Shown here piece by piece: positions 3,611-20,827 of a stretch of 40,478 nucleotides of DNA; position 1 is the first letter of the stretch, and each line of letters starts with the position of its first letter. The stretch is from sequence record PQ476010.1; one strand, 5' to 3'. Below the pieces are notes generated by a model that saw nothing but the letters and a program-made list of their open reading frames with translations, searched no databases and was not told the DNA's origin. The translations under genes were made by a program, and so were the position numbers. Source of the DNA: Escherichia phage PhiNW-B1.

Positions 3611-3650
3611 AGTGTCGCCTGACCTACGGTCCTTGACCTACAGTGGCTGT
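3611..3650 (+). repeat. short-repeat array (3 copies of GRCCTACRGT) on the right side of the terminal repeat (SRR-like)
   Basis: GACCTACGGT 3611-3620, GACCTACAGT 3625-3634, GGCCTACAGT 3641-3650. Confidence 0.8.
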
Positions 3651-3698
3651 GGCCTACAGTAGTGACGATGAGTTTTGGACCAAAAGTTTGAGACCACA

Positions 3699-3915
3699 TC
3701 TCACAGTTCAAGAACCTCAAGTCTCCCCATAGGCCCTCTTTAAGTCCAGACCAAATGCCCTACCAGTTACTGCTCCTTGCAGTCACAGCCAGTCTATCAT
3801 AAGGTTGGACCGATGGTCAAGACGTTAGGTCGACGATAGGTCTAGGCTATGGCTTAGGGAAGGACGATAGGTGGTGACTATTGGTCTGTCTTTGAGTCTC
3901 TATCTGTATCAGACC
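3699..3915 (+). repeat. putative terminal-repeat segment at the concatemer junction (single copy here); boundaries approximate
   Basis: starts TCTCACAGT...TCTCCCCATAGG resembling the T7 left end TCTCACAGTG...TTCCCCCATAGG by recall; flanked by short-repeat arrays on both sides; contains TATCTGTAT near its end. Confidence 0.45.
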
Positions 3916-3920
3916 ATAAG

Positions 3921-4010
3921 TCACTAACCTACAGTCTCACTAACCTACAGTCTCACTAACCTACAGTCTCAATCATAAGACACCAACACCTACAGTCATA
4001 GACCTACAGT
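3921..4010 (+). repeat. short-repeat array on the left side (3 perfect tandem 16-mers TCACTAACCTACAGTC, then 2 more ACCTACAGT copies; SRL-like)
   Basis: units 3921-3936, 3937-3952, 3953-3968; ACCTACAGT again at 3988-3996 and 4002-4010. Confidence 0.9.
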
Positions 4011-4121
4011 TACTAGACACAAAGCTATAGACTTAAGGTCAAAGACATGTTAGTCAAAGACTATATCCTATTACACCATGGGGCCGACGATAGCTTAATC
4101 AATATTATTTCAAATTACCTA

Positions 4122-4811: not shown

Positions 4812-5315
4812 ATGGAACGTAATGCTAACGCATACTATGAGCTGCTGGCTGCAACCGTTGAGGCATTTATCGAGCGTATTCAGTACGACCACCTGACTCA
4901 AGATGATGACTACAGCGATGCGCTGCATGAGGTCGTAGACGGTCAGGTTCCACACTATTACCACGAGATTTTTACGGTGATGGCTGCTGATGGTATAGAC
5001 CACGAGTTCGAAGACTCTGGGCTGATGCCTGAAACCAAGGACGTAACGCGTATACTACAAGCTCGCATCTATGAGGCGCTTTATAACGATGTGTCTAATA
5101 GCTTGGATGTAGTCTGGTTTGAGGCTGAAGAGGCAGACGAAGAGGATGAATATTGGGTAGTTGACGCTAAAACAGGCGCAATAATTGTGCAAGCTGTAGC
5201 TCTTGAGGTCGCTACTGCATGTGCCAAGGTCAACTATGCAATAGGTCGCCACCTGAAGGTGGAAGACATCAATGATAACGTAGTGTTCGACCCTGCGGCT
5301 GAGGACTGCGAGTGA
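4812..5315 (+). CDS. ocr: Ocr-like anti-restriction DNA mimic (T7 gp0.3 homolog) with about 54-aa C-terminal extension
   Basis: N-terminal ~113 aa align by recall to T7 Ocr ([35 protein letters not shown]); 167 aa versus 117 in T7. Confidence 0.85.
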
Positions 5316-16632: not shown

Positions 16633-16673
16633 CTAGACTCAAGGTCATTCATAGCGAGTGGCCTTTATGATTA
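16633..16673 (+). promoter_or_regulatory. conserved hairpin element (AAGGTCA / TGGCCTT) upstream of DNA polymerase gene
   Basis: arms 16641-16647 and 16659-16665; third copy of the TAGACTCAAGGTCAT...GTGGCCTTTATGATTAA element. Confidence 0.4.
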
Positions 16674-16693
16674 AACTAAAGCGAGGATTAACC

Positions 16694-18865
16694 ATGTTTG
16701 ACCTTAAGAGTATCTGGGGTTCTGACATCGAGACCAACGGTCTCCTTGATACAGTCTCCCAGTTTCACTGTGGGGTCCTGATTAACGCCGAGTCGAATGA
16801 GACCCTTAAGTATGGGGTAGCTCCGATGGTCGGTATCGTCGGCGGCTTCAAAGAGTATGTTCATAAAGTGGAAGAGATTGCCGCATCACCTGATGGTATG
16901 CTGGTATTCCATAACGGTATCAACTATGACGTCCCGGCTATAGACAAGCTGAAGCGTTTGTACTTTGGGAAACGCTTTAACTTCCAGAAACATAAGATGA
17001 TTGATACCTTGGTGCTGGGACGCTTGATGTATCCAAACATTAAGTTCTCAGACATGGGCGCGGTGAAAGCTGGTCGTCTGCCACCTAAGATGATGGGACG
17101 CCAGTCTCTTGAGGCTTGGGGCTATCGTCTCGGTGAGATGAAAGGTGAGTACAAACACGATTACGTTGCCAAGTGCAAGGCTGAAGGTATCGAATATAAG
17201 GCTGGGGACGAATGGTTGTTCCCGTCTCAGGAGATGCTGGACTATAACGTTCAAGACGTTGTGGTCACACTGGCGTTGTTCAAGAAGTTCCTGACTGACA
17301 AGTATTACTTCCAGTCTGAACAGTTCGCTTTCGACCAGATTTATGCGTTGCGTCTGGAACATGATGCTGCGTGGACCTGTGCGAAGATGGAGCGTAACGG
17401 CTATCCGATGAACACCGAGATGGTCGAAGGCTTATATCGTGAACTCACTGTCAAACGTGCAGAGTTGCTGGACAAGCTGCGTTCGACTTTCGGTAGCTGG
17501 TACGCACCAAAGGGAGGCAAGGAGTTCTTCAGGCATCCACGGACAGGTAAGGACCTTCCGAAGTATCCGAGGGTCGTGTATCCTAAGGTCGGTGGCATCT
17601 TTAAGAAGCCGAAGAACAAAGCTCAACGCTTAGGTCTTGAACCTTGTGAACGCGATACGCGAGACACGATGGAAGGAGCACCATTCACGCCAATCACTTA
17701 CGTTGAGTTTAATCCGGGAAGCGGAGACCACTTAGCGAAAGTCCTGATGGAGCGTGGCTGGGAGCCTGTTGACTTCACTGACACCGGGAAACCTGTAGTC
17801 GATGACGAGACGTTGGAACACGTTAAGTTACCAGACGCAGAGGCTCAGGCTTGCGTAGAGCTGGTCCGTGAGTATCTGGTAGTCCAGAAGCGCATCGGAC
17901 AGGCTGCTGAAGGTAAGAACGCATGGTTGAAACTTGTAGGTCCAGACGGACGTATGCACGGTTCAATCAACCCTTGTGGAGCAGTAACCGGACGTGCGAC
18001 CCATAGTTCACCAAACATGGCTCAGGTCCCGGCTAACGGTGCTCCATACGGTGAGACTTGCCGTGGTGCTTTCGGTGCAGCGTGGAACAAGAAGGACGGT
18101 AAGCCAGACCCTTGGATTCAAGTAGGCGTGGATGCTTCAGGTCTTGAGCTTCGTTGTCTGGGGAACCGAGCGGCTCCGTTTGATGGTGGCGCCTATGCGA
18201 AGACTGTGGTCGAAGGTGACATCCACTGGGCCAACGCAGTCAACGCTGGGTTAGCACCTAACGTCCCACGCAATAAGTCCAGCCACGACCATGATGCTTT
18301 CCGTAACAACGCTAAGACGTTCATCTATGCGTTCCTATATGGTGCAGGGGCCGCGAAGATTGGACTGATAGTTGGCGGTGGTAAGAAGGAAGGTTCAGCT
18401 CTCATGAAGAAATTCATTGAGGGTACACCAGCCATTAAGGACCTCAGGGAAGCTGTCAGTAATACGTTAATCTCGGACTCTAAGTGGGTAGACGGTGAGA
18501 ACATCGTGAAGTGGAAACGCCGCTGGCTGAAGGGTCTGGATGGTCGTCGCATTCACATCCGGTCCCCGCACTCAGCACTTAACGCCCTACTTCAGGGTGA
18601 CGGTGCGGTGGTCTGTAAGCACTGGATAGTCGAGACCGAGCGTATGCTTGAAGAAGCTGGCTATGTCCACGGCTGGGAAGGTGACTTTGCGTACATGGCT
18701 TGGGTTCACGATGAGCTGCAAATTGCGTGTCGTACTCAGGAGATTGCCGAAGAAGTCGTCAAGATTGCTCAACTTGCTATGCGTAAGGTGGGCGAGTTCT
18801 ATAACTTTAAATGCGTCCTTGACACCGAAGGGAAGATTGGACCAACGTGGAAGGAGTGCCATTGA
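16694..18865 (+). CDS. 5: DNA polymerase (T7 gp5 homolog, family A)
   Basis: SDIETN.LL..V.QFHCGV, GSWY.PKGG.E.F.HPRTGK.LPKYPR, NAKTFIYAFLYGAG, YMAWVHDELQ; start at ATG 16694 (RBS GAGGA) since track GTG start lies inside the hairpin. Confidence 0.97.
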   Translation: MFDLKSIWGSDIETNGLLDTVSQFHCGVLINAESNETLKYGVAPMVGIVGGFKEYVHKVEEIAASPDGMLVFHNGINYDVPAIDKLKRLYFGKRFNFQKHKMIDTLVLGRLMYPNIKFSDMGAVKAGRLPPKMMGRQSLEAWGYRLGEMKGEYKHDYVAKCKAEGIEYKAGDEWLFPSQEMLDYNVQDVVVTLALFKKFLTDKYYFQSEQFAFDQIYALRLEHDAAWTCAKMERNGYPMNTEMVEGLYRELTVKRAELLDKLRSTFGSWYAPKGGKEFFRHPRTGKDLPKYPRVVYPKVGGIFKKPKNKAQRLGLEPCERDTRDTMEGAPFTPITYVEFNPGSGDHLAKVLMERGWEPVDFTDTGKPVVDDETLEHVKLPDAEAQACVELVREYLVVQKRIGQAAEGKNAWLKLVGPDGRMHGSINPCGAVTGRATHSSPNMAQVPANGAPYGETCRGAFGAAWNKKDGKPDPWIQVGVDASGLELRCLGNRAAPFDGGAYAKTVVEGDIHWANAVNAGLAPNVPRNKSSHDHDAFRNNAKTFIYAFLYGAGAAKIGLIVGGGKKEGSALMKKFIEGTPAIKDLREAVSNTLISDSKWVDGENIVKWKRRWLKGLDGRRIHIRSPHSALNALLQGDGAVVCKHWIVETERMLEEAGYVHGWEGDFAYMAWVHDELQIACRTQEIAEEVVKIAQLAMRKVGEFYNFKCVLDTEGKIGPTWKECH

Positions 18866-19026
18866 TGAAGAAGCAGACCTTTACAAGACAGGAGGTCATA
18901 GACCTTATGAGAAGTGCTTGGTGGAGTGGTCACGAGACCTCTCGCTATTGCCCGAACTTGTCAGGGTCTTGTGCTTCTGACATCCGTGAGCTTCTTACAC
19001 CTGATGCCGAAGAGGAGAAAGACTAA
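18865..19026 (+). CDS. hypothetical small Cys-containing protein (53 aa)
   Basis: ATG overlaps gene 5 stop (TGATG); AAGGAG 8 nt upstream. Confidence 0.45.
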   Translation: MKKQTFTRQEVIDLMRSAWWSGHETSRYCPNLSGSCASDIRELLTPDAEEEKD

Positions 19027-19316
19027 TGGCTATGACCAAACGTATGCGAGTATCGTTCTCGCTGGGTGCTGTGCTATCTACTGAAGACGTGAAGCAGTTC
19101 GAGAAGTCTCTCTGTGAGCTGAGCCGTAAGGTCCTGAACGGTGAGAAAGTCTCAGGGTTCGAGCGTAAGATGGTTGAAGTTGGCGTGACTGAAGGTCTGG
19201 AAGCTGTAGTCGAGCTGGTCTTCAAGAAAGGTATCGTCGATGGTCTGAAAGAGGACCTGAGCCACTACGCCGACCAACCGTCCTTCGGTGACTTCCGAGT
19301 GGAGTTCAAACGATGA
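19026..19316 (+). CDS. 5.5: gp5.5-like protein (T7 gp5.5 binds H-NS)
   Basis: N-terminus MAMTKRMRVSF versus T7 MAMTKKFKVSF by recall. Confidence 0.8.
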   Translation: MAMTKRMRVSFSLGAVLSTEDVKQFEKSLCELSRKVLNGEKVSGFERKMVEVGVTEGLEAVVELVFKKGIVDGLKEDLSHYADQPSFGDFRVEFKR

Positions 19317-19522
19317 GCGAATACTTACGGGTCCTCGCGGCCCTTAAGTCCTGCCCGAAGACCTTCCAGTCCAACTATGTGCGCAACAACGCTGCACTGG
19401 TGGCTGAGGCTGCGAGTCGTGGACATCTAAGCTGCCTGTCTATGGACGGGCGTAACAACGGTGCGTGGGAGATTACCGCTGCTGACACCAAGTTCCTGAA
19501 CCAACATGGAGGCTGTCTATGA
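19313..19522 (+). CDS. 5.7: gp5.7-like protein
   Basis: MSEYL.VL.A.KSCPKTFQSNYVRNNA.LVAEAASRGH.SCL...GRN.GAWEITA almost co-linear with T7 gp5.7 by recall. Confidence 0.85.
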   Translation: MSEYLRVLAALKSCPKTFQSNYVRNNAALVAEAASRGHLSCLSMDGRNNGAWEITAADTKFLNQHGGCL

Positions 19523-19968
19523 AGATACCTGAAAGTCTGAAAGAGCTGGTCCTTGAAAGGGGTGAGTGCGAGATGACGCACCGTAAGTATGCTGAGTTCT
19601 ACGCATCTTGGTCTTACACCCTGACCGAGAAGGACGTTGAGTCCTACACCGAGTCTCCTTCTGATGCTTATGAGTGGAGTCCGTTCATCGGACTGACCAT
19701 CGTAGCTAGCGGTATGGGGGATGACAGCTACGGCTCAGAGGTAAACGACTGGGACGTGTACCGCCAAGTTGAGAAGGAGACCGAAATGTCTTCCAACTTC
19801 TGGAGCCTGATGTCCCACCTCAACTCAGATGACAACGACATGGCCCATGAGTTCGCCAACAAATGGTTGAAGCCTGAGGTGACTCTGGAACGTATTGAGG
19901 AGCCTAAAGTTCCCTTGATGCCATATGCAGTCGCTATGGCTACAGGAGGTCTGGACGATGGGTGCTGA
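19519..19968 (+). CDS. hypothetical acidic protein (149 aa) in the position of T7 gene 5.9
   Basis: GGAGG RBS; many D/E residues; no similarity to T7 gp5.9 recalled. Confidence 0.6.
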   Translation: MKIPESLKELVLERGECEMTHRKYAEFYASWSYTLTEKDVESYTESPSDAYEWSPFIGLTIVASGMGDDSYGSEVNDWDVYRQVEKETEMSSNFWSLMSHLNSDDNDMAHEFANKWLKPEVTLERIEEPKVPLMPYAVAMATGGLDDGC

Positions 19969-20827
19969 GAAGAAGATAGCTCTTGTTCTTGATGGCGATT
20001 ACCTAGTATTCTCTTCTATGGCTGCTGCCGAGGACGAGACAGACTGGGGTGATGACATCTGGACCCTTATCTGCGACCACGAGAAGGCTCGCCGTATCCT
20101 TGAGAACACCATCGCTGAAATCATTAAGAAGCGAAAGGCGTGGAAAGACGCTAAGATTGTGATGTGCTTCACCGATGACGTGAACTGGCGCAAGTCAATA
20201 TTACCTACCTATAAGGCCAACCGTAAAGGTTCTCGCAAGCCTGTAGGATACAAGAAGTTCGTAGCCGAAGTGATGGCTGACCCACGGTTCAACAGCTTCC
20301 TGCGTCCTACGCTTGAAGGTGATGACTGTATGGGCATCATCGGGACCCGACCTCAGATTGTCGGCTGTGATCATGCGGTTCTGGTATCCTGCGATAAGGA
20401 CTTCAAGACCATCCCGAACTGTGAGTTCTTCTGGTTAACCACTGGTGAAATCCTGAGTCATACGACTGCTGAGGCAGACTACTGGCACATGGAGCAAACC
20501 ATCAAGGGTGACACTACAGATGGCTACGGTGGCATTCCGGGGATGGGTGAGGACACCACTCGTGCGTTCCTTGACGAGCCGTACTACTTCGTGCAGGAGA
20601 GCCGTGAGCTTAAGACTGGTAAGAACAAAGGCCAGATTAAGACTGAGTGGAAGAAGTATCCAAAGCGTGAAGACATGACGCTGTGGGACTGCATGGTGAC
20701 TCTGGCTGCTAAAGCGGGGATGACCGAGGAGGAACTTCTGGTCCAAGCTCAGGTCGCTCGTATTTGTCGAGCCTCTGACTACGACCCTAAGTCAAAGGAG
20801 GTCATCCTGTGGACACCATCCATGTAA
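19958..20827 (+). CDS. 6: 5'-3' exonuclease (T7 gp6 homolog)
   Basis: LVLDGDYLVF, KANRK...KPVGY, SCDKDFKTIPNC, QTIKGD.TDGY.GI; start at ATG 19958 with AGGAGG upstream. Confidence 0.95.
   Translation: MGAEKKIALVLDGDYLVFSSMAAAEDETDWGDDIWTLICDHEKARRILENTIAEIIKKRKAWKDAKIVMCFTDDVNWRKSILPTYKANRKGSRKPVGYKKFVAEVMADPRFNSFLRPTLEGDDCMGIIGTRPQIVGCDHAVLVSCDKDFKTIPNCEFFWLTTGEILSHTTAEADYWHMEQTIKGDTTDGYGGIPGMGEDTTRAFLDEPYYFVQESRELKTGKNKGQIKTEWKKYPKREDMTLWDCMVTLAAKAGMTEEELLVQAQVARICRASDYDPKSKEVILWTPSM

Follow-up and report, generated by a model that had tools for sequence, protein, structure and literature searches.

A two-module acidic protein in the gene 5.9 slot of Escherichia phage PhiNW-B1 shares a short module with gp5.9-type RecBCD inhibitors

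Introduction

Among phage inhibitors of RecBCD, the literature names Gam, gp5.9 and Abc2, which in turn are sensed by guard systems that have evolved to do so. In phage T7, gp5.9 (PF25708; PDB 8B1R and 9GMB) forms a parallel coiled-coil dimer acting as a DNA mimic at the RecB arm, with an N-terminus that lies near or contacts the RecBCD core, and its inhibition is weakened by an N-terminal tag (PMC9836394). The same protein also inhibits MukBEF (PMC7617805), and T7 escapes the retron Ec48 by a point mutation in gp5.9 (10.1101/2020.06.21.156273). The 52-aa gp5.9 occupies the slot between genes 5.7 and 6 of the T7 genome, among the class II DNA-metabolism genes. Lambda Gam, P22 Abc2 and T7 Ocr are likewise small, acidic and non-enzymatic, and they belong to the early or middle gene class.

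Here, we analyzed the same slot in Escherichia phage PhiNW-B1 (sequence record PQ476010.1), whose whole stretch of 40,478 nucleotides is called the window below. The original prediction was that an acidic 149-aa protein, with no visible resemblance to gp5.9, replaces it in this position and is a candidate DNA mimic or anti-RecBCD/anti-defence protein of a different fold. The slot, the strong acidity and the surrounding class II DNA-metabolism genes are indeed those of T7 gp5.9, and an anti-RecBCD function of the 149-aa protein appears plausible from its sequence relationships, which are described below together with the alternatives.

Results

The window corresponds to a T7-like phage of the Kayfunavirus (K1F) type, and the 2.1-kb region around the open reading frame (ORF) shares 91-97% identity with Escherichia phages vB_EcoP_F, Pipis and Vec13. 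The ORF lies on the plus strand at 19519..19968, starts with ATG and encodes 149 aa plus a stop, confirming the predicted gene between its flanks, and with 149 aa against 52 aa the product has, as had been proposed, about three times the size of gp5.9. The genes run in the order DNA polymerase (16658-18865, upstream of the 149-aa ORF), a 5.3-like ORF, gp5.5 (19026-19316; PF11247, E 3.9e-9), gp5.7 (19313..19522, plus strand, 69 aa), the 149-aa ORF and the gene 6 exonuclease (19945..20827, plus strand), so that the ORF stands between genes 5.7 and 6 of a Studiervirinae genome. A Shine-Dalgarno (SD) sequence, GGAGG, read directly from the letters at 19508..19512 on the plus strand, precedes the ATG by 6 nt, and the start codon (19519-19521) shares bases with the TGA stop of gene 5.7 (19520-19522) in the arrangement ATGA, which implies translational coupling of the 149-aa ORF. 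At its other end, the ORF overlaps gene 6 by 11 nt, taking as start of gene 6 the ATG at 19958 that is used in annotated homologues and is preceded by its own SD, GGAGG, at 19945-19949; the mechanically called gene 6 ORF begins further upstream, at the ATG at 19925. Annotated relatives of the 149-aa protein are all labelled "hypothetical protein". Its neighbors gp5.5 and gp5.7 are host-directed factors in T7. According to the note in the T7 record itself, gp5.5 abolishes H-NS-mediated inhibition of transcription.

Two further observations were made in this region. A 59-aa ORF (phrog_20928) at 18847-19026 on the plus strand overlaps the end of the DNA polymerase gene; the corresponding place in phage Pipis is taken, after a gap, by an HNH endonuclease with homology to T3 gene 5.3. 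This interval is a second variable spot, just upstream of the 149-aa cassette. Two records, OR786095.1 ('Staphylococcus phage MBBL139') and MT350292.1 ('Enterococcus phage EFA-1'), share 91-93% identity with this coliphage region, and their host assignments look doubtful.

The 149-aa ORF is a real gene under purifying selection. Single-ORF copies were found in more than 100 phage records, and the full-length ORF is kept in more than 100 phage genomes that cover three Studiervirinae genera plus Ounavirinae; close homologues, at 78-97% identity and 148-150 aa, are present in many phage genomes and metagenomes. Pairwise dN/dS, calculated by region among the Kayfunavirus copies, was 0.15-0.21 for the whole gene and 0.11-0.28 for the N-terminal domain (residues 1-87). 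The most constrained part was the stretch of residues 88-118 (0.03-0.09), while the C-terminal tail (residues 119-149; 0.24-0.65) is under relaxed selection. Variants with an in-frame internal deletion or a lost start were also seen, on phage contigs that are otherwise complete (P0029, P0032, P0036 and L020:3417-3623), for example a 91-aa form without residues 52-110 and a 43-aa form, suggesting that the gene is dispensable under some conditions.

The protein can be divided into three parts. Residues 1-87 (19519..19779, plus strand), here named the N-domain, belong to phrog_4382 and adopt an alpha/beta fold in the model, with the predicted elements H5-14, E16-21, E26-34, H37-43, H47-56, E59-68 and E72-86 and the motifs EHRKYaEFY (also given as EHRKYsEFY) and GmWsDSyG. 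In family alignments of this domain, G65 and G72 are invariant and K23 is almost so; since apart from the glycines only K23 comes close to invariance, the protein has a non-enzymatic appearance. Residues 88-118 (19780..19872, plus strand) form what we call the SHLN module, a predicted helix-loop-helix (H89-100 and H107-116), which reads FWSLMSHLNSDDNDMAHEFANKWL in the window, with the consensus F..L(M/L)SHLN(S/A)E(D/E)NxMAxEF and the motif also written LMSHLNSxDNDMAxEF. The C-terminal tail, residues 119-149 (19873..19965, plus strand), has one predicted strand at 120-125 followed by a proline-rich segment of low confidence, and its four prolines leave no room for a long helix or coiled coil after the SHLN module. 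The invariance of TGGLDD in this tail is explained by dual coding with the SD and the ATG of gene 6, and it was therefore not taken as evidence of a protein motif. Codon 67 (19717-19719) encodes a glycine in the window copy (GMGDDSYG) where nearly all close and most distant relatives have tryptophan (GMWxDSYG); the change may be functional, may reflect host adaptation or may stem from a sequencing error.

Comparison with libraries, using either the protein or profiles as queries, gave a full-length match to phrog_4382 (E 7.4e-46; residues 1-130 against profile positions 6-129 of 130) and no other match in Pfam, NCBIfam or PDB sequences. AlphaFold reached a pLDDT of 63 with close homologues alone and of 82 with a more diverse alignment, and the latter model places two short helices after the alpha/beta domain, then a strand and the proline-rich tail. 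Structure comparison found no solved relative of the N-domain or of this model, and neither sequence nor fold similarity was seen to the lambda Gam, P22 Abc2 and Ocr families; solved anti-defence proteins likewise gave no similarity. A match of 'SHLNS' to RGMB (E 0.29) was attributed to chance, and a match to PADLOC PDC-M02B (E 0.005, 14 bits) was judged to be probably noise. The different fold that had been proposed thus holds for most of the protein, as far as the pLDDT-82 model goes: an alpha/beta domain with no solved relative is predicted, unlike the coiled coil of gp5.9.

The predicted richness in acidic and aromatic residues was borne out by calculation: the 149-aa protein has a pI of 4.31, a net charge of -18, 30 D+E against 12 K+R, and 17 aromatic residues. 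By acidity per residue it ranks second among the roughly 50 putative proteins of PhiNW-B1, exceeded only by Ocr, and the property is family-wide, with pI values of 4.2-4.9 in all 36 relatives examined, even those at 25% identity. A small protein whose large net negative charge is kept across homologues would fit the DNA-mimic class, which is further defined by surface carboxylates spaced like the phosphates of DNA and by competition with DNA for a DNA-binding protein. The Ocr DNA mimic of this phage is encoded at 4812-5315 on the plus strand (167 aa, pI 4.08, net charge -30; PF08684, E 3.6e-30); it exceeds T7 Ocr in length by about 50 residues, and its Pfam match spans residues 8-94 only.

We then compared the 149-aa protein with the gp5.9 family. 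BLASTP against T7 gp5.9 gave nothing (E 4.2), and PF25708, which is matched by T7 gp5.9, YeO3-12 gp5.9 and the Kc166A, ZH4 and Pistou proteins, was matched neither by the full protein (E<=1) nor by its C-terminal fragment (E<=10). A faint tblastn match, on the other hand, led to a 65-aa "putative host recBCD nuclease inhibitor" of Erwinia phage Pistou, a PF25708 member (E 1.7e-15) whose start contains FDDLLSHLNSEENGMALEF. Used as a query, the Pistou protein matched the 149-aa family with its residues 2-41 and YeO3-12-type gp5.9 proteins with its residues 32-61, and YeO3-12 gp5.9 in turn ties this core to T7 gp5.9 (phrog_9014, E 2.9e-8). The SHLN module is therefore also the N-terminal module of genuine PF25708 gp5.9-family proteins (phrog_6163 positions 1-30): the C-terminal fragment of the window protein matched phrog_6163 positions 3-29 with E 3.6e-4, and the Klebsiella homologue did so with E 4.6e-5. 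A local HMM built from 12 gp5.9-family proteins and run against all six-frame ORFs of the window picked out the 149-aa ORF alone, through its SHLN module (E 5e-8; domain E 6.7e-11).

The SHLN-type gp5.9 proteins of phrog_6163 (Kc166A QVV96871, ZH4 ULF48590, Pistou WJN64750 and Y2 gp58) have a nearly identical module core, in a different setting. These proteins carry the module at the N-terminus, ahead of the gp5.9 core and an acidic tail, whereas in the window protein a different domain precedes the module and the proline-rich tail comes after it. In Pfam and MAFFT alignments of the SHLN-type members, the second helix of the module (MAxEF...) aligns with the start of the gp5.9 domain. Compared with T7 gp5.9, the window protein has an extra 87-residue N-terminal alpha/beta domain and lacks both the long coiled-coil helix and GVDNWxGY.

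This gp5.9 core, made of a strand, a long coiled-coil helix and mostly GVDNWxGY plus an acidic tail, is absent from the 149-aa protein: core-only HMMs scored about 0 bits, and the family, aligned by hhalign with 21 distinct gp5.9 proteins without the SHLN module, reached probabilities of 0.1-0.2%. The motif GVDNW occurs nowhere in the window, and no gp5.9 core was found elsewhere in the window or in the whole genomes of Klebsiella phage 117 and Citrobacter phage Moogle, indicating that the two-module protein and the gp5.9 core are alternatives in three lineages. Two possible traces of the core were rejected, namely 'AMATGGLDD' as a truncated 'ALKACGVDNW' motif (hhalign 0.2%, with an invariance explained by the gene 6 SD/ATG) and 'VNDWDVY' in the N-domain as an echo of 'GVDNWDGY' (0.2 bits). 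The absence of resemblance to gp5.9 that had been noted thus stands for the core, by PF25708, HMMs and hhalign, and fails for residues 88-118, which are shared with PF25708 proteins. Judged by these matches, the 149-aa protein is best regarded as a modular relative or cassette alternative of gp5.9, and not as an unrelated intruder.

Some contigs (L050 and L052-L054, ORFs 601-735) encode gp5.9 proteins of 45-48 aa that combine a T7-like N-terminus (ETVTIPR) with GVDNWDGYSDA. According to these sequences, T7 gp5.9 itself is a derived form, in which the motif GVDNWDGYSDA has been lost and the helix lengthened.

Comparison with phages of the same genus showed how the two types of gene replace each other. 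Kosakonia phage Kc166A and Escherichia phage ZH4, both Kayfunavirus, carry in exactly this slot proteins of 67 and 78 aa composed of SHLN plus gp5.9 core (PF25708, E 8e-13 and 5.5e-12, respectively). In blastn against these two genomes, the window is 92-95% identical up to the last base of gene 5.7 (19522) and 81-89% identical again from 19944-19954, and the swapped cassette spans 19523..19943 on the plus strand. The only DNA inside the cassette that can still be aligned with Kc166A is a 39-nt island at 19806..19844 (plus strand), which encodes LMSHLNSDDNDMA and is 87% identical to the gp5.9-type gene of that phage. The slot is therefore an exchangeable accessory cassette with sharp boundaries.

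A scan of viral contigs showed that both modules of the 149-aa protein are found in other combinations. The SHLN module is joined to at least four unrelated partners: the gp5.9 core, in many 53-56-kb Erwinia and Escherichia phages and in Kolesnikvirus; the N-domain, represented by phrog_4382 (the window type) and phrog_24684; and two other unrelated C-terminal domains of the phrog_13236 type. In L031:3483-3974, on a metagenomic contig, the order is the reverse of that in the window, with SHLN first and an N-domain-like domain (phrog_24684) fused after it. ORFs near 3480 in L023, L025, L026, L028 and L030 combine SHLN with a phrog_13236-type domain carrying the motif GGxDGS.YP...ET.QVP, and these proteins are further candidates for small host-directed proteins.

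The N-domain is likewise found by itself, with unrelated tails, or as a gene of its own 3' of gp5.9-type genes. Its HMM matched the ORF directly 3' of the gene for SHLN plus gp5.9 core in L022 (E 7e-7) and L029 (E 0.011), as well as L027, which is Erwinia phage Y2 gp59 (E 9e-5; a BFVD structural neighbor with probability 0.99), with weaker matches in L033 and L034. In these Y2-like phages (L022, L027 and L029, at about 3631-4100), the SHLN-plus-gp5.9-core gene and the N-domain-like gene form a two-gene cassette after the dUTPase gene. As both adjacency and fusion are seen, the N-domain is tied to gp5.9-type genes. Other relatives on long contigs consist of the N-domain only and have no gp5.9 or SHLN gene within 4 kb.

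For the family as a whole, an exhaustive profile search of 1.8 billion representatives returned just 19 clusters. By tblastn, this slot also holds members in Pectobacterium phage Jarilo and in Przondovirus phages of Klebsiella, the latter with 127 aa and about 43% identity. At about 30% identity, they are found in the 88-kb Ounavirinae myoviruses (Moogle, SUSP1/2 and Sf13-17), where the Moogle gene sits between nrdD and nrdG. The N-domain is common to the window protein and the phrog_4382/phrog_24684 proteins (the Klebsiella 127-aa protein, Moogle gp14, phiSUSP1 and Y2 gp59), with E-values of 1e-42 to 1e-66 against phrog_4382 and predicted-structure matches in BFVD of E 7e-14 to 1e-4. Unlike the window protein, the Klebsiella and Moogle forms lack the C-terminal tail, and the SHLN module is missing from Y2 gp59 and from many metagenomic relatives. 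No characterised member of the family was found in the literature on accessory-gene screens, AntiDefenseFinder, EVADES, BASEL or Kayfunavirus.

Discussion

Based on these results, we propose that the 149-aa protein may be a non-enzymatic acidic binder that substitutes for gp5.9 against the RecBCD hub, a reading to which we assign a probability of about 0.4. It is suggested by the common slot and module, by the way in which the protein and the gp5.9 core exclude each other, by an acidity kept across the family and by the link of the N-domain with gp5.9-type genes, together with the non-enzymatic look of the protein, purifying selection that is strongest on the SHLN module, and the neighboring gp5.5 and gp5.7. 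According to this model, two mobile modules, the alpha/beta N-domain and the SHLN helix-loop-helix, would be carried in one exchangeable accessory cassette, expressed together with the class II DNA-metabolism genes, and would take over the job of gp5.9 in phages without its coiled-coil core. The acidic surface would bind the host hub that processes double-stranded DNA ends, meaning RecBCD and, possibly, MukBEF or another of the DNA-binding targets of gp5.9, and this binding would protect linear replicating and concatemeric phage DNA. We infer both the target and the binding mode from these relationships. A rationale for alternative cassettes would be provided by guards of the retron Ec48 type, because they select against canonical gp5.9.

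Several observations count against gp5.9 substitution. The protein shows no detectable homology to the coiled coil that binds RecBCD, and sharing the SHLN module does not imply sharing a target, because T7 gp5.9 works without SHLN and is impaired by an N-terminal tag. Y2-like phages have an N-domain relative in addition to a complete gp5.9-type gene, which points to roles that complement each other and are not identical or redundant. The N-domain-only relatives without such neighbors, the nrdD/nrdG location in Moogle and the deletion variants count against substitution as well.

Some of these observations favor a different target, a possibility that we consider only slightly less probable than substitution for gp5.9. 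Here, the 149-aa protein would be an anti-host or anti-defence protein that is complementary to gp5.9 and acts on something other than RecBCD, such as a nuclease, a defence system or a guard that responds to RecBCD inhibition, with the SHLN hairpin as a shared adaptor or oligomerisation module. The attachment of SHLN to at least four unrelated partners would fit such an adaptor, and the missing gp5.9 core, the Y2-like pairs, the N-domain-only proteins and the presence of the family in a nucleotide-metabolism cluster of unrelated myoviruses are all in line with it. It would, however, leave three lineages without a recognisable RecBCD inhibitor, though the slot is otherwise used for one, and no solved anti-defence protein is similar, the weak PADLOC match being of little help.

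A more specific and rather doubtful version of these ideas takes SHLN as a portable module, for host targeting or for docking into heteromers, that phages of several families place on interchangeable effectors. The 149-aa protein would then be an inhibitor of new fold, which either blocks RecBCD in a way unlike coiled-coil DNA mimicry, possibly without tripping guards of the retron Ec48 type, or neutralises a new host factor linked to the RecBCD hub.

We consider it improbable that the protein serves the DNA metabolism of the phage itself, for example as a partner or modulator of the gene 6 exonuclease, the DNA polymerase or the single-strand-binding protein. Its gene lies among replication and recombination genes with the 11-nt translational link to gene 6, and relatives are found between nrdD and nrdG (Moogle), after dUTPase (Y2) and near Thy1 and RNR genes (metagenomic contigs). 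Some copies moreover end in an acidic ...DDDFE, similar to T7 gp2.5 and gp4, whose acidic C-terminal tails have F as their last residue. Against this stands the fact that the gene swaps with a RecBCD inhibitor while its flanks stay unchanged, and that T7 and T3 do not have it and natural deletion variants do without it. The C-terminal motif is accounted for by dual coding with the ribosome-binding site and start of gene 6, under relaxed selection, and is missing in the Klebsiella and Moogle homologues; an imitation of the gp2.5/gp4-type tail was rejected on the grounds that the tail is variable, weakly selected and absent from distant homologues.

Finally, a decaying remnant or filler in a recombination hot spot, without current function, as the deletion and start-loss variants and the loss of a nearly invariant tryptophan at G67 might suggest, is very improbable in view of the low dN/dS overall and above all in SHLN, the full-length ORF in more than 100 genomes of Studiervirinae and Ounavirinae, a model that is confidently folded (pLDDT 82), a good SD and translational coupling.

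In conclusion, T7-like phages have a polymorphic cassette site in their 5.9 slot, in which an uncharacterised acidic protein replaces canonical gp5.9 in many Escherichia, Salmonella, Shigella and Klebsiella phages, many of the phages that carry it being candidates for therapy. SHLN is a short and very conserved module common to this protein, to gp5.9-type inhibitors and to other small phage proteins, and it offers a concrete starting point in the search for more anti-host proteins and for the binding partner of the module. If the 149-aa protein does inhibit RecBCD, as substitution for gp5.9 would require, it would solve that problem with a new structure; otherwise, these phages would either manage without a RecBCD inhibitor or target something new.
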